A stretch of DNA of 50,240 bases from Candidatus Nomurabacteria bacterium (GTDB lineage Bacteria; Patescibacteriota; Minisyncoccia; Phycocordibacterales; UBA918). The stretch is from positions 1 through 50,240 of the forward strand of contig JACKGC010000001.1 in NCBI GenBank assembly GCA_020632135.1, given 5' to 3'. How positions within the stretch are numbered: the stretch's first letter is position 1; each line of letters opens with the position of its first letter. The notes below the pieces were generated by a model. It was given only the letters and a program-made list of their open reading frames with translations. It had not been told where the DNA came from and ran no database searches. A program made the position numbers and the translations under genes. This document shows, piece after piece, positions 2,122-47,658 of the stretch.

Positions 2122-2343
2122 CGAGTACAAAAATGAGCATCCTTATTGGATGCCATTTTTGTTCGTGCGGCGGGAGAAAGCAAACTGCTTTGCTTTCGTC
2201 TGGATTCGAAGCTCCGGACGATGTTTTGTGAGCTTTCCAAGCGAACAAAACGAGGAGGAGCCGTCCAAGAAACCGAGTCTCGTTTGCGAGCGGAGCAAAA
2301 CAAACGAGCCGGTATTCGGGGACGAATCCAGCCCGGCGCACCA
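2104..2343 (+). mobile_element. Target-duplicating insert on the 3' side of tRNA-Tyr
   Basis: A 19-bp direct repeat CGAATCCAGCCCGGCGCAC lies at 2104-2122 and 2323-2341, the second followed by CA. The antisense target is split as 2163-2174 plus 2200-2210 around a 25-nt hairpin (2175-2199). The core at 2260-2322 is homologous to 47260-47323. Confidence 0.8.
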
Positions 2344-5203: not shown

Positions 5204-6421
5204 CTAGTGAGTCAAACCCCTCATAAGCGCACAGTGCGCCATAAGCGCTGTAACAAGAGCGTGGAGGTCCTCGTTGGTGGTACCAGGGCCAATGGTGAAG
5301 CGGAGGGTGGAGGCGGCGCGGGCGGCGTCAGCTGAGGTGGCTTTCACCACCGTGCTCTCACCGCCGCCCGCGCCGCTACAGGCTGACTTGGTACTGACCG
5401 CAAACCCCTTGCTGTCGAGCCAGACAGCGGCGTACTCGGTATCAAAGCCAAGGATAGAAATGTTGATATTATTTGCCAAGCGATCTTCTCCCGTTGGGCC
5501 ATTCAAAATCGCGTTAGGAATTGTTTCTAGGAGCCCTTTGATTCCTCCATCTCGCACACTGCGGGCTCGCTTCGCTCGCTCGCACCAATCGCTCTGGGCC
5601 ACTTCTAACGCCACCGCTGCTCCTACGATACCTGCCACGTTCTCTGTGCCTGGCCTAAGTCCAGCTTCTTGGCCGCCGCCGAAGGCGGCGGCCACAAGTT
5701 CCACCCGCCGACTACGCACCAGCACCCCTACCCCTTTCGGTCCACAGAATTTTCCTGCGTCAAGCACCATCACATCAGCACCAGTACTACCAAACTGACA
5801 ATTGAGCCAGAGCGGCGCTTGCGCCGCATCGAGATGAAACATGATCTTCGTGCCATATGTTTCCTCAGCCTCGCGCAGCACTTTCTTAATCCCATGAAGT
5901 TTCTGCACCACACCGATCTCACTGTTGGCATACGCAACCGAGAAAAGTACCGTTTTTTCTGAAAGCAGCTCACGCAAATGTGCGAGCTCAACAACTCCCT
6001 CCTCATCAACATCAACGTACTTCACCACTACCCCACGCCGCTTAAGAGCGCTCATAGTATTCATAACAGACGGATGTTCAATGCGCGTCGTGATCACTTC
6101 CATTTCTGCGGAGGCCTTTCCTTCGCACGTTGTACTTGCGGAGGCCTTTCCTTCGCACATTGCTTCGAGAGAGCCTAAAATAGCCAAATTGTTAGCCTCA
6201 GTGCCGCCAGACGTGAAGGTGATGAACTCTGGGCGGACCTGGAGAACGCGCGCGACTCCGTCGCGCGCGTTCTCCACCGCCCGCCTGGCCACCTGCCCCT
6301 CTTGGTGAATCGCGCTCGCGTTACCAAAGTCACCCTCAAGAAACGGCAACATCGCCACTTTTGCCTCCGGCAAAAGTGGCGTCGCCGCCGCCCAGTCTAG
6401 ATAAATCCTTTTCTCTTGCAT
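5204..6421 (-). CDS. Cysteine desulfurase (IscS/NifS family, class V aminotransferase)
   Basis: IYLDWAATP, FTSGGTEANN, HLDAAQ, the PLP lysine in AGKFCGPKG, RPGTEN and the catalytic Cys in SACSG. Start MQEK chosen. Confidence 0.92.
   Translation of the reverse strand: MQEKRIYLDWAAATPLLPEAKVAMLPFLEGDFGNASAIHQEGQVARRAVENARDGVARVLQVRPEFITFTSGGTEANNLAILGSLEAMCEGKASASTTCEGKASAEMEVITTRIEHPSVMNTMSALKRRGVVVKYVDVDEEGVVELAHLRELLSEKTVLFSVAYANSEIGVVQKLHGIKKVLREAEETYGTKIMFHLDAAQAPLWLNCQFGSTGADVMVLDAGKFCGPKGVGVLVRSRRVELVAAAFGGGQEAGLRPGTENVAGIVGAAVALEVAQSDWCERAKRARSVRDGGIKGLLETIPNAILNGPTGEDRLANNINISILGFDTEYAAVWLDSKGFAVSTKSACSGAGGGESTVVKATSADAARAASTLRFTIGPGTTNEDLHALVTALMAHCALMRGLTH
6107..6158. repeat. 22-bp direct repeat (30-bp period) in frame inside the desulfurase gene
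   Basis: TGCGGAGGCCTTTCCTTCGCAC at 6107-6128 and 6137-6158, translated as CEGKASA twice. Confidence 0.9.
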
Positions 6422-9317: not shown

Positions 9318-9390
9318 CCGCCTTTAGCTCAGTTGGTAGAGCAGCTCGCTCTTAACGAGACGGTCCAAGGTTCGAGTCCTTGAAGGCGGA
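9318..9390 (+). tRNA. tRNA-Lys (CTT)
   Basis: Acceptor CCGCCTT/AAGGCGG, D arm GCTC-AGTTGGTA-GAGC, anticodon loop CTCTTAA and T arm CAAGG-TTCGAGT-CCTTG. Confidence 0.93.
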
Positions 9391-9598
9391 CAGTCGTAAA
9401 ACGCAGAAGTTCCTGTCTTAGGACAGGAACTTCTGCGTTTTAGCAAGCAAACTGCTTTGCTTGCGTGCGACTGTCCGAGGCGCGGCGATGTAATTTGCTC
9501 GTTCCTAGAGCAAATTACGAGCGAGCCGGGGTCGCAGGTACTTACTAGAATTGGAGCGCAGCGAACAATTATAGTTAGTAACCTGTGACGACAGCAGT
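9391..9598 (+). mobile_element. Structured insert downstream of tRNA-Lys (same family)
   Basis: A 20-bp perfect inverted repeat is followed by the 25-nt hairpin (9442-9466) and then GCGACTGTCCG, which is antisense to the tRNA end and trailer. The core at 9521-9589 is homologous to 29353-29419. Only a short GACAG duplication is visible. Confidence 0.7.
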
Positions 9599-9684: not shown

Positions 9685-9766
9685 GCGCAGGTGGCGAAAT
9701 TGGTATACGCGCTAGTTTTAGGCACTAGTGGAGCAATCCGTGGAGGTTCAAGTCCTCTCCTGCGCA
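9685..9766 (+). tRNA. tRNA-Leu (TAG)
   Basis: Acceptor GCGCAGG/CCTGCGC, anticodon arm CTAGT-TTTAGGC-ACTAG, long variable arm and GGTTCAAGTCC. Confidence 0.95.
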
Positions 9767-10064
9767 CAAAGCAAGTCCGCGTGTAGCGGGCTTTTTGTGT
9801 GCAGGAAGCAAAGTCTGGGAGACTGTGCATGAGGGCTTGAAGCCCGATTGAGACACGATCCGACCAGCGGGAGGATCTGTCCAATTGGGGTACTGAACGT
9901 GTAGCGTTCAAGTCCTCTCCTGCGCACAAAGCAAGTCCGCGTGTAGCGGGCTTTTTGTGTGCAGGAAGCAAAGTCTGGGAGACTGTGCATGAGGGCTTGA
10001 AGCCCGATTGAGACACGATCCGACCAGCGGGAGGATCTGTCCAATTGGGGTACTGAACGTGTAG
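9746..10064 (+). repeat. Two identical tandem copies (160-bp period) of a tRNA-Leu-targeted insert
   Basis: 9746-9904 equals 9906-10064. Each unit is the tRNA-Leu 3' end, a hairpin, the split antisense target and a core shared with 13-72. Confidence 0.9.
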
Positions 10065-10089
10065 GGTTCAATTCCCGCTCCCGGCACCA
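10065..10089 (+). pseudogene. Orphan 3' fragment of a different tRNA-Leu-like gene, ending in CCA
   Basis: GGTTCAATTCCCGCTCCCGGCACCA does not match tRNA-Leu(TAG). It is 3 mismatches from the 3' end of tRNA-Leu(TAA). Confidence 0.7.
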
Positions 10090-28038: not shown

Positions 28039-29271
28039 ATGGAACAGATACGATCAGACGTGGAGTCATTTGCACGGATCCGAGTGGTTGGTGTTGGTGG
28101 TTCTGGTAAGAACGCGGTGAACCACATGGTCTCTTCAAAGGTGAAGGGGGTGGAATTTATTGCCATCAACAGTGACGCGCAAGACCTGCACCACTCACTC
28201 GCAAAACGAAAGATCCACATTGGTAAGAACCTTACCCGCGGCCTCGGCGCTGGCGGTAACCCTGACATGGGCCGACGCGCTGCAGAAGAAACTCGAGAAG
28301 AGATCGCGAACGCGATCAAAGGATCCGACATGATCTTCATCACTGGTGGTATGGGTGGTGGCACCGGTACTGGCTCAGCACCAGTCGTGGCTAAGATCGC
28401 TCGCGAGAGCGGCGCCCTCACAGTGGGAGTCGTCACCAAGCCATTTCTCTTTGAGGGTCAGGAGCGCATGCGCTTAGCTTTACAAGGCATTGAAGAGTTG
28501 AAGCAAGAAGTAGATGCACTCATTACCATTCCTAACGACCGCCTGCTCGCGATCGTCGATAAGGAAACCACGGTGAGCAGCGCCTTTGAGCAATGTGACA
28601 ATATTCTCCGCCAGGCAGTTGAAGGTATTTCTGATCTCATCACCATGCCCGGTATAATCAACGTTGACTTCGCCGACATTCGAAGCGTTATGGAGAATGC
28701 TGGATCTGCTCTGATGGGCGTGGGTATCTCTTCTGGAGAAAAGCGTGCTGAAGAAGCGGCCCAAGCTGCTATCAATTCACCACTACTTGAAGTGTCTATC
28801 ACTGGTGCGAAGGGTGTACTCTTTGCGATTGCGGGAGGCGACGACCTCGGTATGCTCGAGATCCAAGATGCAGCACGTGTGATTACTGAATCAATCGACC
28901 CACAAGCGCGTGTGATCTTTGGTGCAATCCGTGACGAAAAGCTGAAGAAGAACGAACTCAAGGTCACAGTGATCGCCACCGGTTTCCCTGAAGAATCAGG
29001 CCATGGCAGCAACTACAGCATTGCGCGCCGCGCACCGGTGGCCGCAGAGACGCGTGAGCGCGAAGTGGAAGAAGACAAAGAGCCAGTGCGTGGCAAGATC
29101 TTCAATTCCCTACCAAAAAAACCTGAAGTAACGAAGCCAACTGAACCAATAAAGCCCACCCCAACCGAGCCGCCCAAGCGCGACCCGAAGCCAATCGATG
29201 CTGCTGACGACACCGACGATGATGACTGGGGCGCGGTTCCTGCATTCTTGCGTCGGAGTAAGCTGAAGTAA
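28039..29271 (+). CDS. ftsZ: Cell division protein FtsZ
   Basis: [15 protein letters not shown], tubulin signature GGGTGTG, NVDFAD and C-terminal VPAFLRR. Confidence 0.98.
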
Positions 29272-29457
29272 GCCACTTGCGCTGTTCGCAAGTATGCGGA
29301 ACCGCGAAGCGCAACAATGTGAGGAGCGGCTTTAGCCCGCCGCGACGAACCAGCGAGCTGGGGTCGCGAACACTTAGTAGATTTAAGCGAAGCGAAGGAT
29401 ATACTTAGTGATTCGTGACCGGTTCCTGCATTCTTGCGTCGGAGTAAGTTGAAATAA
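29234..29457 (+). mobile_element. Target-duplicating insert at the ftsZ 3' end (same family as the tRNA inserts)
   Basis: A 38-bp direct repeat lies at 29234-29271 and 29420-29457 with 2 mismatches. An internal ATGCGGAACCGCG is antisense to the target. The core is homologous to the tRNA-Lys insert. Confidence 0.8.
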
Positions 29458-32765: not shown

Positions 32766-32840
32766 GGCCCCATCGTCTAACGGCTAGGACGCCAGGTTTT
32801 CATTCTGGAAATCGGAGTTCGATTCTCCGTGGGGTCACCA
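32766..32840 (+). tRNA. tRNA-Glu (TTC), CCA encoded
   Basis: Acceptor GGCCCCA/TGGGGTC, anticodon arm CCAGG-TTTTCAT-TCTGG and GTTCGATTC. Confidence 0.95.
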
Positions 32841-34335
32841 ACGAAGATTTATCACGTTTATACTCCTCAGATAGTGAGTAAATAGGCGACAAAACAGCGG
32901 TTCCAAAACCGTTGTTTTGTGTATAAGGAATACTGCCCTCGAAAATAAAATTTTGGAACCGTAGCCTTTTTTCAGGCTGTTTTACCAATCGCTTCCAAGT
33001 ATCAGGAGTATCAATAATGAAACTTATGCAGTAATCAAGAGCGGCTTCAAAGTCTAATTCGCCACCCCGCACTTCAATCAAGTTACTTTGAGCGGCATAT
33101 AGCTGTCGTTCCACTTCTCGTTTTCGTTCTAAGAAGTCAGTCTTGGTATAGATACCCTCTTCAAAATTGTTAAAGATGGCTTTCTTTTTCTCATACAGGC
33201 TAGCGACCTGCTGTCTAACCGTCTCGTTTTGTTTTTCAGCATTGGTGTTATCTTCTCGATAAATTTCCATACACGCCTCTTTGAAAGCGTTGGCAAATTC
33301 AAAGGTAGGATTTATCTCCTCTAGAAAAGAGACAAATGATTCTTCAAGGTCTTTCTTTTTGATTGATTTAGCGTGCGGACAACCTTGTTTGTGATGATGA
33401 TAATAACCGTGCTTCTTGCCACCACGTCCAGTCGAAAAGCTACCTGTTAATGGATCATCACACCACTCGCAAGAAACCAGTCTGCGAAGTGGAAAATTAG
33501 GATTCTTTTCTTGTTTCTTTGTTCCCTTATGTGACCGTCCGGCACCTTGGCATTTATAAAATAGTGACTCAGTGACAATAGGTTCATGTTGTCCTTTGAC
33601 TTCGATGCCCCATTCATCCTTTTTCACGATACCAGCATACAGAGGGTTATGGATCATTTTTTGAATAGTTTGAAACTCAATCTTTTTGCCAGATTTTGAG
33701 CGTAGACCTTTTTCAAATAAGAGAGTGGCTAGAGTTTTGTATGTATGAGTCCCTTTCACATACTCATTGAAAGCGAGGCGGACATACTGAGCGTCGTTAT
33801 CAGGCACCATAACGCCGCCTTTTTCTAGACGTTGATAACCTGTAGGAGCCGGCCAGACCCAGATTCCTTGCTTAAGGCGTTCTCGCATACCAGTCGAGCT
33901 ACGTTCAGAGCGGATACTGTTATCAAATTCAGCTGAAGCAGACAATGTGCCCATTAAGAATTTTCCGATTGGTGATTCATCAACCGGTTCAGTAGCAGAG
34001 CGAATAGTGACACCATATTTATTAAGACTGTTTTGAACAGCGAAGTGATCGGTCTGACTACGAGAAAAGCGGTCTAATTTATATACTATGAAAAAATCAA
34101 TCTGGTTTTTCTTTTGACCACAAAATGAAATTGCTTTAAGAAACTGAGGACGATCGGCAGTTTTAGCAGATTCGCCTCGATCAACAAACACATCAGCAAC
34201 TTCTATACCTTCACGTTCGGCATATTCACGACAAATCCGCTCCTGTGATTCAAGACTAGTTCCATCCACCTGTTCGAGCGAAGACACGCGACAATAGATA
34301 ATCCCTCGCTTTCCTGTCATATCAGTATCATACAT
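32800..34335 (-). CDS. Large serine recombinase (resolvase + recombinase + Zn-ribbon domains), 511 aa
   Basis: Catalytic Ser in IYCRVSS, DRGESAKTADRPQF, VYKLDRFSR, GIWVWPAPTGY, HEPIV and CEWC...HHKQGC. The C-terminus runs into the antisense strand of tRNA-Glu. Confidence 0.95.
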   Translation of the reverse strand: MYDTDMTGKRGIIYCRVSSLEQVDGTSLESQERICREYAEREGIEVADVFVDRGESAKTADRPQFLKAISFCGQKKNQIDFFIVYKLDRFSRSQTDHFAVQNSLNKYGVTIRSATEPVDESPIGKFLMGTLSASAEFDNSIRSERSSTGMRERLKQGIWVWPAPTGYQRLEKGGVMVPDNDAQYVRLAFNEYVKGTHTYKTLATLLFEKGLRSKSGKKIEFQTIQKMIHNPLYAGIVKKDEWGIEVKGQHEPIVTESLFYKCQGAGRSHKGTKKQEKNPNFPLRRLVSCEWCDDPLTGSFSTGRGGKKHGYYHHHKQGCPHAKSIKKKDLEESFVSFLEEINPTFEFANAFKEACMEIYREDNTNAEKQNETVRQQVASLYEKKKAIFNNFEEGIYTKTDFLERKREVERQLYAAQSNLIEVRGGELDFEAALDYCISFIIDTPDTWKRLVKQPEKRLRFQNFIFEGSIPYTQNNGFGTAVLSPIYSLSEEYKRDKSSLVTPRRIELRFPE

Positions 34336-47132: not shown

Positions 47133-47515
47133 CAAAGACAAAATAGCGTCCCGCAAGGGCGCATATTTTGTTTGCGGAAGCGAGCAAGCCAACTACTTGG
47201 CTTGCGTGAGGGATTCGAAGCTGCGGAGCATGTGCTGAGCTTGCGAAGCACAGCGAGCAGCCGTCCAAGAACACGAGCTGTTTTCGAGCACAGAGTGTGA
47301 GAAAAACAGCCGTGATTCTGGGACGAATCCCTCCGCCTGTTGAAAATACCGCCGTGAGGCGGTTATTTTCTTAGGCGGAAGCGGAGCAAAGTGCCCTGCG
47401 GCACTTTGCGTAGGGATAAGAAAGCCGGAGCGATGTCGCGCGGAGCGGAGCGAGCACGACACGCGAGGCGGGGTCGCGAAAAATTTTTACAGAAAATTTA
47501 TCAGTGACCGAATCC
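47115..47515 (+). mobile_element. Two stacked target-duplicating inserts downstream of tRNA-Ser
   Basis: CGAATCCCTCCGC lies at 47115-47127 and 47324-47336. A perfect 22-nt antisense of the tRNA end is split by a 25-nt hairpin (47183-47207). The second unit has a 27-nt hairpin (47385-47411) and ends GTGACC-GAATCC. Confidence 0.8.
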
Positions 47516-47658
47516 TTACAGGATCAGTACACCTTGTCGATATTTTCTTTCCCTACGTCAGAAAGTATCTGACAAGGCCTTGCGAAGGTCTCCCAGACCT
47601 TCTCACCCTCCGCTTCCGCAATAAAAAACCAAGCTGCCTAGGCAGCTTGGTGAAGTGG

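Follow-up and report, generated by a model that had tools for sequence, protein, structure and literature searches.

The 50,240-nucleotide stretch analyzed here (positions 1 to 50,240, forward strand, of contig JACKGC010000001.1 in assembly GCA_020632135.1 of Candidatus Nomurabacteria bacterium; hereafter the window) carries two short insertions, one behind the tRNA-Lys(CTT) gene and one behind ftsZ, each of which ends in an imperfect hairpin that we refer to as core C. The source genome (744 kb in 3 contigs, about 50% G+C, 67% complete) is that of an ultra-small bacterium. Core C closes the 3' end of a family of protein-less insertion elements of the Candidate Phyla Radiation (CPR/Patescibacteria), most of which are 130–220 nt in length. 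Read 5' to 3', such an element consists of a copy of the 3' end of the gene, a perfect terminator-like palindrome, a small hairpin, an antisense arm, a middle hairpin and a terminal hairpin, and is followed by the displaced native gene end (copy 2) and then by the native terminator. The terminal hairpins are of several types, of which core C is one and cores A and B are others. The left end was mapped in 50 copies; 45 of these measured 132–219 nt and only one of the 50 contained an open reading frame (ORF), for a helix-turn-helix-like protein of 198 aa. The parts of the two insertions are listed below.

9318..9391, plus strand: tRNA-Lys(CTT), called by ARAGORN and Rfam; bases from G72 (9389) on are supplied by the element
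9389..9589, plus strand: the complete Lys mini-element (201 nt), separating tRNA positions 71 and 72, with its own GACAG start and GTGAC end
9397..9442, plus strand: perfect palindrome behind the rebuilt tRNA end, element-borne and terminator-like, from self-match on both strands
9443..9464, plus strand: small conserved hairpin GCAAGCAAACTGCTTTGCTTGC ahead of the antisense arm
9468..9477, plus strand: Lys antisense arm ("guide") CGACTGTCCG, complementary to 9387-9396 and spanning the break by 2 nt
9488..9520, plus strand: Lys middle hairpin GTAATTTGCTC / GAGCAAATTAC, between arm and core C
9531..9589, plus strand: Lys core C, with stems 1-3, bulged A and apical stem
9590..9594, plus strand: displaced native tRNA-Lys target GACAG, adjoining the core C foot on its 3' side
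29234..29419, plus strand: whole ftsZ mini-element, 186 nt (repeat family D2)
29234-29271, plus strand: the ftsZ element's copy of the last 12 codons and stop (stop 29269-29271)
about 29288-29306, plus strand: ftsZ antisense arm, after a short hairpin and before the middle hairpin and core C
29363..29419, plus strand: ftsZ core C
29420..29457, plus strand: displaced native ftsZ end, 38 nt, starting right after the foot, with 2 synonymous differences from copy 1

The sequence GACAG is thus present twice at the tRNA-Lys locus, at 9389-9393 and at 9590-9594. The small hairpin GCAAGCAAACTGCTTTGCTTGC recurs in copies at C1:375 kb, 128 kb and 298 kb and at 2179-2198 of the window, and hairpins homologous to the Lys middle hairpin were found in all copies. 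Both inserts are closed by the motif GGGGTCGC..GTGAC, which occurs twice in the window against 0.01 occurrences expected by chance. In both copies core C folds as a three-tier hairpin, composed as follows.

9531-9538 / 9582-9589, plus strand: Lys stem 1, GTCGCAGG / CCTGTGAC
29363-29370 / 29412-29419, plus strand: ftsZ stem 1, GTCGCGAA / TTCGTGAC
9534-9586: G.T wobble in stem 1 of the Lys copy, with the equivalent position in the ftsZ copy
9581 (Lys) and 29411 (ftsZ): bulged A in the 3' arm
9539-9547 / 9572-9580, plus strand: Lys stem 2, TACTTACTA / TAGTTAGTA
29371-29379 / 29402-29410, plus strand: ftsZ stem 2, CACTTAGTA / TACTTAGTG
9543-9576 (Lys) and 29375-29406 (ftsZ): T.T mismatch in stem 2
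9549-9553 / 9566-9570, plus strand: Lys stem 3
9556-9562, plus strand: apex of the Lys copy, a 2-bp stem with a GCA loop, inside GAGCGCAGCGAAC
Loops: GAGCGCAGCGAAC (Lys) and AAGCGAAGCGAAG (ftsZ)

The ftsZ copy has a third stem and an apical part on the same plan as the Lys copy. The preliminary description of this stretch had proposed, from these two copies, that core C is kept as a structure between the tRNA-Lys and ftsZ inserts, and the fold, the covariation and the fixed irregularities reported below bear this out. Both stems which it had named are present where it placed them, but they share no base, and the bulged A which lies between them (9581 and 29411) had been overlooked. As DNA the plus strand of core C folds at -13.8 kcal/mol (z = -5.2) compared with -9.1 kcal/mol for the minus strand.

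A covariance model of core C was built from the four closest copies in this genome. In the 46 best-scoring aligned copies 92.6% of the pairs were formed, a level reached in 0/500 shuffles, compared with 78.1% after shuffling, and double-sided changes were observed at 24/24 pairs; when the partners were slid by 1–3 columns as a control in the same sample, pairing dropped to 25–42%. An independent sample of 31 copies, picked via the ftsZ and tRNA-Lys loci, gave 91.6% paired versus 75.0% shuffled, and a class-wide sample of 31 copies, scored on the outer stem only, gave 93.8% versus 82.2%. Pairing was retained while the sequence changed, with compensatory changes at nearly all pairs.

The irregularities of the fold were found to be as constant as its pairing. 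Among 40 type-1 copies the bulged A was kept in 40, the G.T at pair 4 in 38 and the T.T mismatch in 38, while pair 5 was C-G in 20 and A.G in 19. The earlier claim that the T-T position is retained accordingly stands for type-1 copies, but it is confined to the ACTTAGT subfamily, since the other core-C subtypes found across the class are without a T.T; in the shorter core-C forms of the class the foot and the bulged A are retained and the inner stems differ. One such short form lies in the window as part of the second unit behind tRNA-Ser(CGA):

47476..47508, plus strand: short-form core C GTCGCGAAAAATTTTTACAGAAAATTTATCAGTGAC; 8-bp foot and bulged A as in the longer copies, inner stem different, T.T mismatch absent

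At the apex a 2-bp stem covaries (G-C/A-T, C-G/T-A) around a G/A-N-A loop, the commonest apical forms being AGCGAAGCGAA and AGCGTAGCGAA; GCGAAGC is an unusually stable DNA mini-hairpin. Outside the fixed positions the 40 type-1 copies contained 18 G.T/T.G cells and 4 A.C/C.A cells, and because G.T outnumbers A.C in this way it is the gene-sense strand that folds. The greater stability of the plus-strand fold given above is a second sign of this strand asymmetry.

The position of core C relative to the insertion break was found to be exact. The last nucleotide of the element is the last paired base of the core C foot and the displaced target begins at the next base, which is C56 of the tRNA T-loop, tRNA position 72, or a C in ftsZ, where the break falls at the C of an Ala codon 12 codons ahead of the stop. 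At 13/13 type-1 loci with an exact duplicate of at least 13 nt the offset between foot and target was 0 and the preceding base was mismatched; the targets at these loci were tRNA-Gln, Phe, Asn and Val (all at C56) and ftsZ. In a register test 87 distinct copies with a core-C-type foot were scanned at offsets from -4 to +4. A target motif stood at offset 0 in 71/87 copies, this being the T-loop motif (C56-R-A-N-T-Y-Y) in 36, the ftsZ motif CNGTNCC in 16 and the N-A-C tRNA end in 19, and no target motif was found at any nonzero offset in that range, save three false hits which were Lys-type GAC^AAAT flanks (the caret marks the break, here and below).

Empty alleles of the same genus agreed with a break at the foot. 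Eleven ftsZ loci (L047, L048, L049, L056, L058, L062, L066, L067, L069, L070, L073) were empty and read TGGGGNG^CNGTNCC to the stop, followed by the native terminator and the downstream gene. About 17 ftsZ loci in the genus were occupied, and where the unit had a core-C foot the native sequence restarted at the C. For tRNA-Lys(CTT) eight loci were empty and eight held a core-C unit between positions 71 and 72, behind which native GACAA or CACA restarted. The identity of the foot pair switches from G-C to C-G, A-T or G.T (GTC..GAC, CCC..GGG, ATC..GAT, CTC..GAG, GCC..GGC) and the junction is unmoved, which points to structure rather than sequence. We looked for breakpoints that vary relative to the stem and observed none for core C. 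The proposal made earlier, that the stem foot defines the strand-transfer point, is matched by this exact coincidence of foot and break; that the one causes the other we infer.

A second determinant of the break was found in the antisense arm, which pairs with the target copy from the break onward and with exactly 2 nt 5' of it. The two extra arm bases in T-loop copies are AA in 23/24, facing T54 T55, and the third arm base was the complement of G53 in only 2 of the 24. In ftsZ copies the two extra arm bases are CG or CC and track the target. The break is thus specified twice, because the hairpin foot marks it in the element and the arm end, 2 nt inside, marks it in the target. When the ftsZ unit was folded together with its flank, the centroid structure placed the helix between arm and copy 2 flush against core C.

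The rule is less strict in the sister hairpins. It had been stated for all three cores that the 3' arm of the terminal stem directly abuts the duplicated target; this is exact for core C, but cores A and B overlap the target by 1–4 nt. The two hairpins in the window are:

9895..9909, plus strand: core A hairpin, GAACG TGTAG CGTTC, behind tRNA-Leu
2265..2322, plus strand: core B hairpin, behind tRNA-Tyr (repeat family D7), from pairing analysis

The 3' arm of the core A hairpin overlaps the target copy or repeat unit, which starts at 9906, by 4 nt. In the core A relatives L131 (GGTCTC..GAGAC^C) and L138 the last pair is formed with C56 of the target copy, L131 being informative as the bases that precede its break differ from the target. 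With C56 (2323) in the target copy, the foot of core B (GTCC..GGGA^C) can form one extra pair, and the core B break falls 8 nt past a bulged A, as in core C. Direct abutment is therefore off by at least one base in cores A and B because the terminal helix includes or shares target bases, and a break at the foot holds within one base across the hairpin types and exactly for core C. A fixed 8-nt ruler from the bulged A to the break was considered; it fits the core C subtypes and core B, but another type (GGTGACCGTCAGGA^) has 9 nt and the ruler was rejected. The 160-nt unit behind tRNA-Leu(TAG) stands twice in tandem with 99% identity (9746-10065), and this array is closed, at 10066-10089, by a 3' end that belongs to another tRNA (GTTCAATTCCCGCTCCCGGCACCA) and not to Leu(TAG).

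The family is abundant. The core C model matched 145/150 genomes of the same taxonomic family at about 1,600 places, or about ten copies per genome, and 41/151 genomes spread over the class. In this genome 13/33 tRNA genes are trailed by a duplicate of their own 3' part, 11 of them 124–240 nt downstream; the duplicates nearly always begin at C56 of the T-loop, except that those of Ile and Thr have other start points in the tRNA and seem to belong to another type of element, which leaves 11 genes with duplicates from the present elements. Beyond these 13, Lys and Arg tRNA genes carry the same module with a duplicate of 3–5 nt. In all, the family occupies about half of the tRNA genes of this genome. 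About half of the ftsZ and tRNA-Lys alleles in one genus were occupied, with different subtypes, and tandem re-insertions of units were observed. Modules at different targets within one genome were only about 85% alike. The ftsZ unit of L054 (G147) and that of the window (29272-29419) have an identical middle hairpin and differing core C subtypes, which suggests that the parts of the module recombine independently. A full-text search of the literature found no published description of the element family, and a pattern scan of viral contigs returned only chance matches inside coding sequence, with zero matches to a stricter pattern.

Several other units were observed in and around the window. 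Its first 306 nt begin within a core-A unit ending at 84 and hold a further unit which ends in GTGAC, with two copies of one tRNA end at 84-102 and 288-306. Behind tRNA-Ser(CGA) 2–3 units are stacked with differing terminal hairpins, core B type and then short core C (47134-47621); a degenerate stretch follows, and the matching tRNA end comes only after it, at 47606. An 18-nt duplicate of the beginning of tRNA-Tyr lies 187 nt ahead of it (1852-1869 / 2039-2056, repeat family D3), and there is therefore a 5'-side insert in addition to the 3' unit at 2123-2322; the 5' insert looks like a mirror-image element type. Outside the window, at G000 C1:146515-147823, the element that follows tRNA-Ser(GCT) is 1.2 kb long and resembles a cargo-carrying cassette. 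It holds an AT-rich 308-aa ORF, the product of which has a C-terminal hydrophobic helix and gave no Pfam match. A 26-nt sequence, TGCGGAGGCCTTTCCTTCGCACGTTG, is repeated with 30-nt spacing at 6107-6162 (repeat family D4).

Candidate partner enzymes were sought by gene-family searches of the genome and its relatives. No match was found in the genome, which is 67% complete, for an IS110-type DEDD transposase (PF01548), for TnpB (PF07282) or for a reverse transcriptase, and none for omega-RNA or HEARO in Rfam; IS110, TnpB and reverse transcriptase were excluded as partners by this lack of matches. Large serine recombinases (LSRs) adjoin four tRNA genes in this genome, yet their distribution was unrelated to that of the module (104/150 genomes had an LSR, as did 4/5 module-free genomes, and genomes with 16–27 module copies but no LSR exist in the family sample) and they too were rejected. 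One of them lies in the window at 32766-34335, a 511-aa LSR gene (Resolvase, Recombinase and Zn ribbon) which runs antisense to tRNA-Glu and covers part of its 3' end; no further copy of that tRNA end was found within 30 kb, nor a duplicate behind this LSR element. A single tyrosine recombinase was identified in the genome, an Xer-like protein of 337 aa (C1:317431-317949) encoded far from the module copies. Each of five module-rich genomes without Y1 that were checked likewise had a single full-length Xer-like recombinase, which was the only site-specific recombinase found in all five of these carriers. The Xer-like gene is present in every genome checked, and its presence is therefore not discriminating.

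On balance we consider it probable that core C is the enzyme-docking terminal hairpin of a protein-less, guide-carrying insertion element which acts in single-stranded form, and that the hairpin tells a trans-acting enzyme where to cut and join. In such a mechanism the antisense arm would pick the target, and core C in single-stranded form, probably DNA, would stack end-on on the arm:target helix, so that the exchanged phosphodiester would then lie in the continuous strand at the stacked helix junction, a geometry suggested by the arrangement of the two helices. Core C would be the docking site that sets the place of cutting and joining for a trans-acting strand-transferase, for which the single Xer-like tyrosine recombinase is a candidate, with Y1/HUH as an alternative where the genome has one.

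A number of points weigh against this interpretation. No enzyme was linked to the element by the searches of this genome and its relatives, and neither an excised nor a circular form was observed, no search of sequencing reads having been made. The arm fixes the break position equally well, and the hairpin may not set it. The boundary as we map it is the left limit of homology between two target copies, so that the actual cut may be a few bases further in. In the sister hairpins, cores A and B, at least 1 nt of the target copy is taken into the helix. The bias towards G.T wobbles is as compatible with RNA as with single-stranded DNA. Finally, part of the similarity between modules may be due to gene conversion and not to recent transposition, because the modules are only about 85% alike and their parts appear to recombine independently.

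Of the alternatives, the one which survives best, although we regard it as unlikely, is that a Y1/HUH transposase (RAYT or IS200-like) mobilizes the module in trans in a REP/REPIN-like manner, in which case core C would be the bound hairpin and the arm an enlarged IS608 guide. The logic of IS200/IS605 is alike, as IS608 combines an irregular hairpin, cleavage at or near its foot and a same-strand guide, and this genome has two RAYT-like Y1/HUH genes with HFH and YIHLNP motifs outside the window (C1:482726-483394 and about C1:103636-104211). A Y1 domain was found in 97/150 family genomes, the mean number of module copies being 12.4 with Y1 and 7.8 without, a comparison that is not corrected for relatedness or overall mobile-element load, and all five module-free genomes were also without Y1. 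However, 48 of the 53 genomes without Y1 carry modules, 17 of them with 10–26 copies and including near-complete genomes in 1–10 contigs, which rules out Y1/HUH as an obligatory partner and leaves it as a minority rival. In addition the guides of IS200/IS605 are 4 nt long and pair 5' of the cut, while those found here are 10–18 nt (12–20 with the upstream half) and lie mostly 3' of it. The RAYT-like Y1 family itself was unevenly distributed among relatives, some genomes having as many as 17 copies.

Somewhat less likely again is that the module is transcribed and core C belongs to a structured guide RNA, either bridge- or omega-RNA-like or a processing signal, with the boundary as the meeting point of scaffold and target-matching tail. 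The G.U wobble, U.U mismatch and bulged A which such a transcript would contain are frequent in RNA protein-binding features, the strand bias is compatible with RNA, and the native terminator follows copy 2. A scaffold followed by a target-identical flank is also the layout of the TnpB right-end element RNA (reRNA), which the module resembles in this respect. Against these likenesses stand a strong palindromic terminator just upstream of the module, with no promoter-like site found ahead of it, and the negative searches for IS110, TnpB and reverse transcriptase in the genome given above. An Rfam scan at gathering scores returned tRNAs only, and one by E-value returned only chance microRNA-hairpin matches on the palindrome. 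The apical mini-hairpin of GCGAAGC type is moreover known as a very stable fold of DNA.

We think it improbable that the modules have no dedicated mobility at present, are spread and homogenized by homologous recombination or gene conversion, and keep core C for insulation or termination. The shuffled parts seen between the window and L054 and the limited similarity of copies within a genome (only about 85%) would suit this explanation, and the direct repeats of 17–38 nt permit precise loss. It does not sit well, however, with the recurrent independent occupancy of about half of the ftsZ and tRNA-Lys alleles by different subtypes, with the tandem re-insertions, or with the retargeting to unrelated sequences accompanied by matched antisense arms, and a terminator role leaves the nucleotide-exact boundary unexplained. 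Least probable, by a little, is that the modules are double-stranded att-site remnants (like cis-mobilizable elements, CIME) of T-loop integrase elements, with core C an inverted-repeat binding site and the boundary the edge of the attP/attB identity block, for although tyrosine-integrase islands are reportedly characterized, in the classical case, by T-loop sublocation and by identity blocks that extend to the 3' end, and LSR elements sit at four tRNA genes here, a duplex binding site needs no covarying pairs, one-strand wobble, fixed mismatch or bulge, nearly the same core is used at targets as unrelated as ftsZ, the T-loop and position 72, together with an internal antisense arm that matches, LSRs are distributed independently of the module, and this genome and the five others checked have one tyrosine recombinase each.

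Returning to core C as a docking hairpin, comparison with known systems gives, as the best-supported account by analogy, an element that would work like attC sites, IS200/IS605 ends and the folded attP of CTXphi, yet which lacks features that define membership of each. Like integron attC sites, the units are short, mostly cargo-less or single-gene, end in an imperfect hairpin and stack in tandem; structure is kept over sequence, one strand folds, and extrahelical bases and mismatches mark the active strand. In contrast to integrons, neither IntI nor attI is present here, the genome having the one 337-aa tyrosine recombinase and copies scattered over loci behind ftsZ and the tRNA genes. A GTTRRRY core and R boxes are lacking, the 3' end reading ..YGTGAC^C with the break after the last paired base and not inside an R box. 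The units enter and rebuild many essential genes rather than one platform, and an internal antisense arm matches each target.

The likeness to IS200/IS605 (IS608, ISDra2) and REP/REPIN-RAYT lies in an irregular subterminal hairpin near the cleavage point combined with a same-strand internal guide that pairs with the target, and by analogy in a single-strand logic and in non-autonomous copies that may be mobilized in trans. The elements differ in the length and placement of the guide, in having a single terminal hairpin type at the right end only and in carrying a replacement gene end, and the Y1 gene is missing from about one third of carrier genomes. With integrative mobile elements exploiting Xer (IMEX) of the CTXphi type they share the lack of an element-encoded recombinase; a folded single strand may likewise present a pseudo-duplex site, at which a host tyrosine recombinase could do one strand exchange with replication then resolving the product. 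The targets here are, however, tRNA T-loops, tRNA position 72 and ftsZ, not dif, and they are specified by the antisense arm; no resemblance to a dif site was seen, although no search aimed at it was made.

tRNA islands and gene-end-replacing prophages (e14 and phage 21 in icd) similarly insert at the T-loop or the 3' end of a gene, supply a replacement end and leave the native end as a direct repeat. The units described here are instead 130–220 nt long and without an integrase, one module family serves unrelated targets, and there is no symmetric core at attR because the 5' strand of the T-stem is absent. The bridge (seek) RNA of IS110/IS1111 also is a structured non-coding part with target-complementary sequence and a programmable choice of target, but no DEDD transposase was found in this genome, the two-loop bridge architecture is absent, and a long copy of the target is carried.

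It is possible, though we put this forward tentatively, that the family constitutes a new class of protein-less, guide-programmed, single-strand integrative elements in which a resident housekeeping enzyme, for example the Xer-like recombinase, is steered by the arm to any site chosen and cuts at the stacked hairpin junction. Such an element might then in effect be a natural, DNA-encoded retargetable attachment site, a suggestion that we hold just as tentatively.

What is settled is a nucleotide-exact rule for one end of a very abundant family, whose hairpin foot stands flush against the arm:target helix. For bench work this provides defined plus-strand substrates, a set of defined mutations (bulged A, G.T, T.T, foot pair and register) and a short list of enzymes. 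If the hairpin and the arm do direct a host enzyme, the element would be a protein-free retargetable integration module, which would be of consequence for the biology of mobile DNA and of interest as a tool. The rule also serves annotation: in CPR genomes, a tRNA end that stands orphaned, a duplicated tail of ftsZ or a set of tandem units is to be read as a product of insertion and not as an assembly error.

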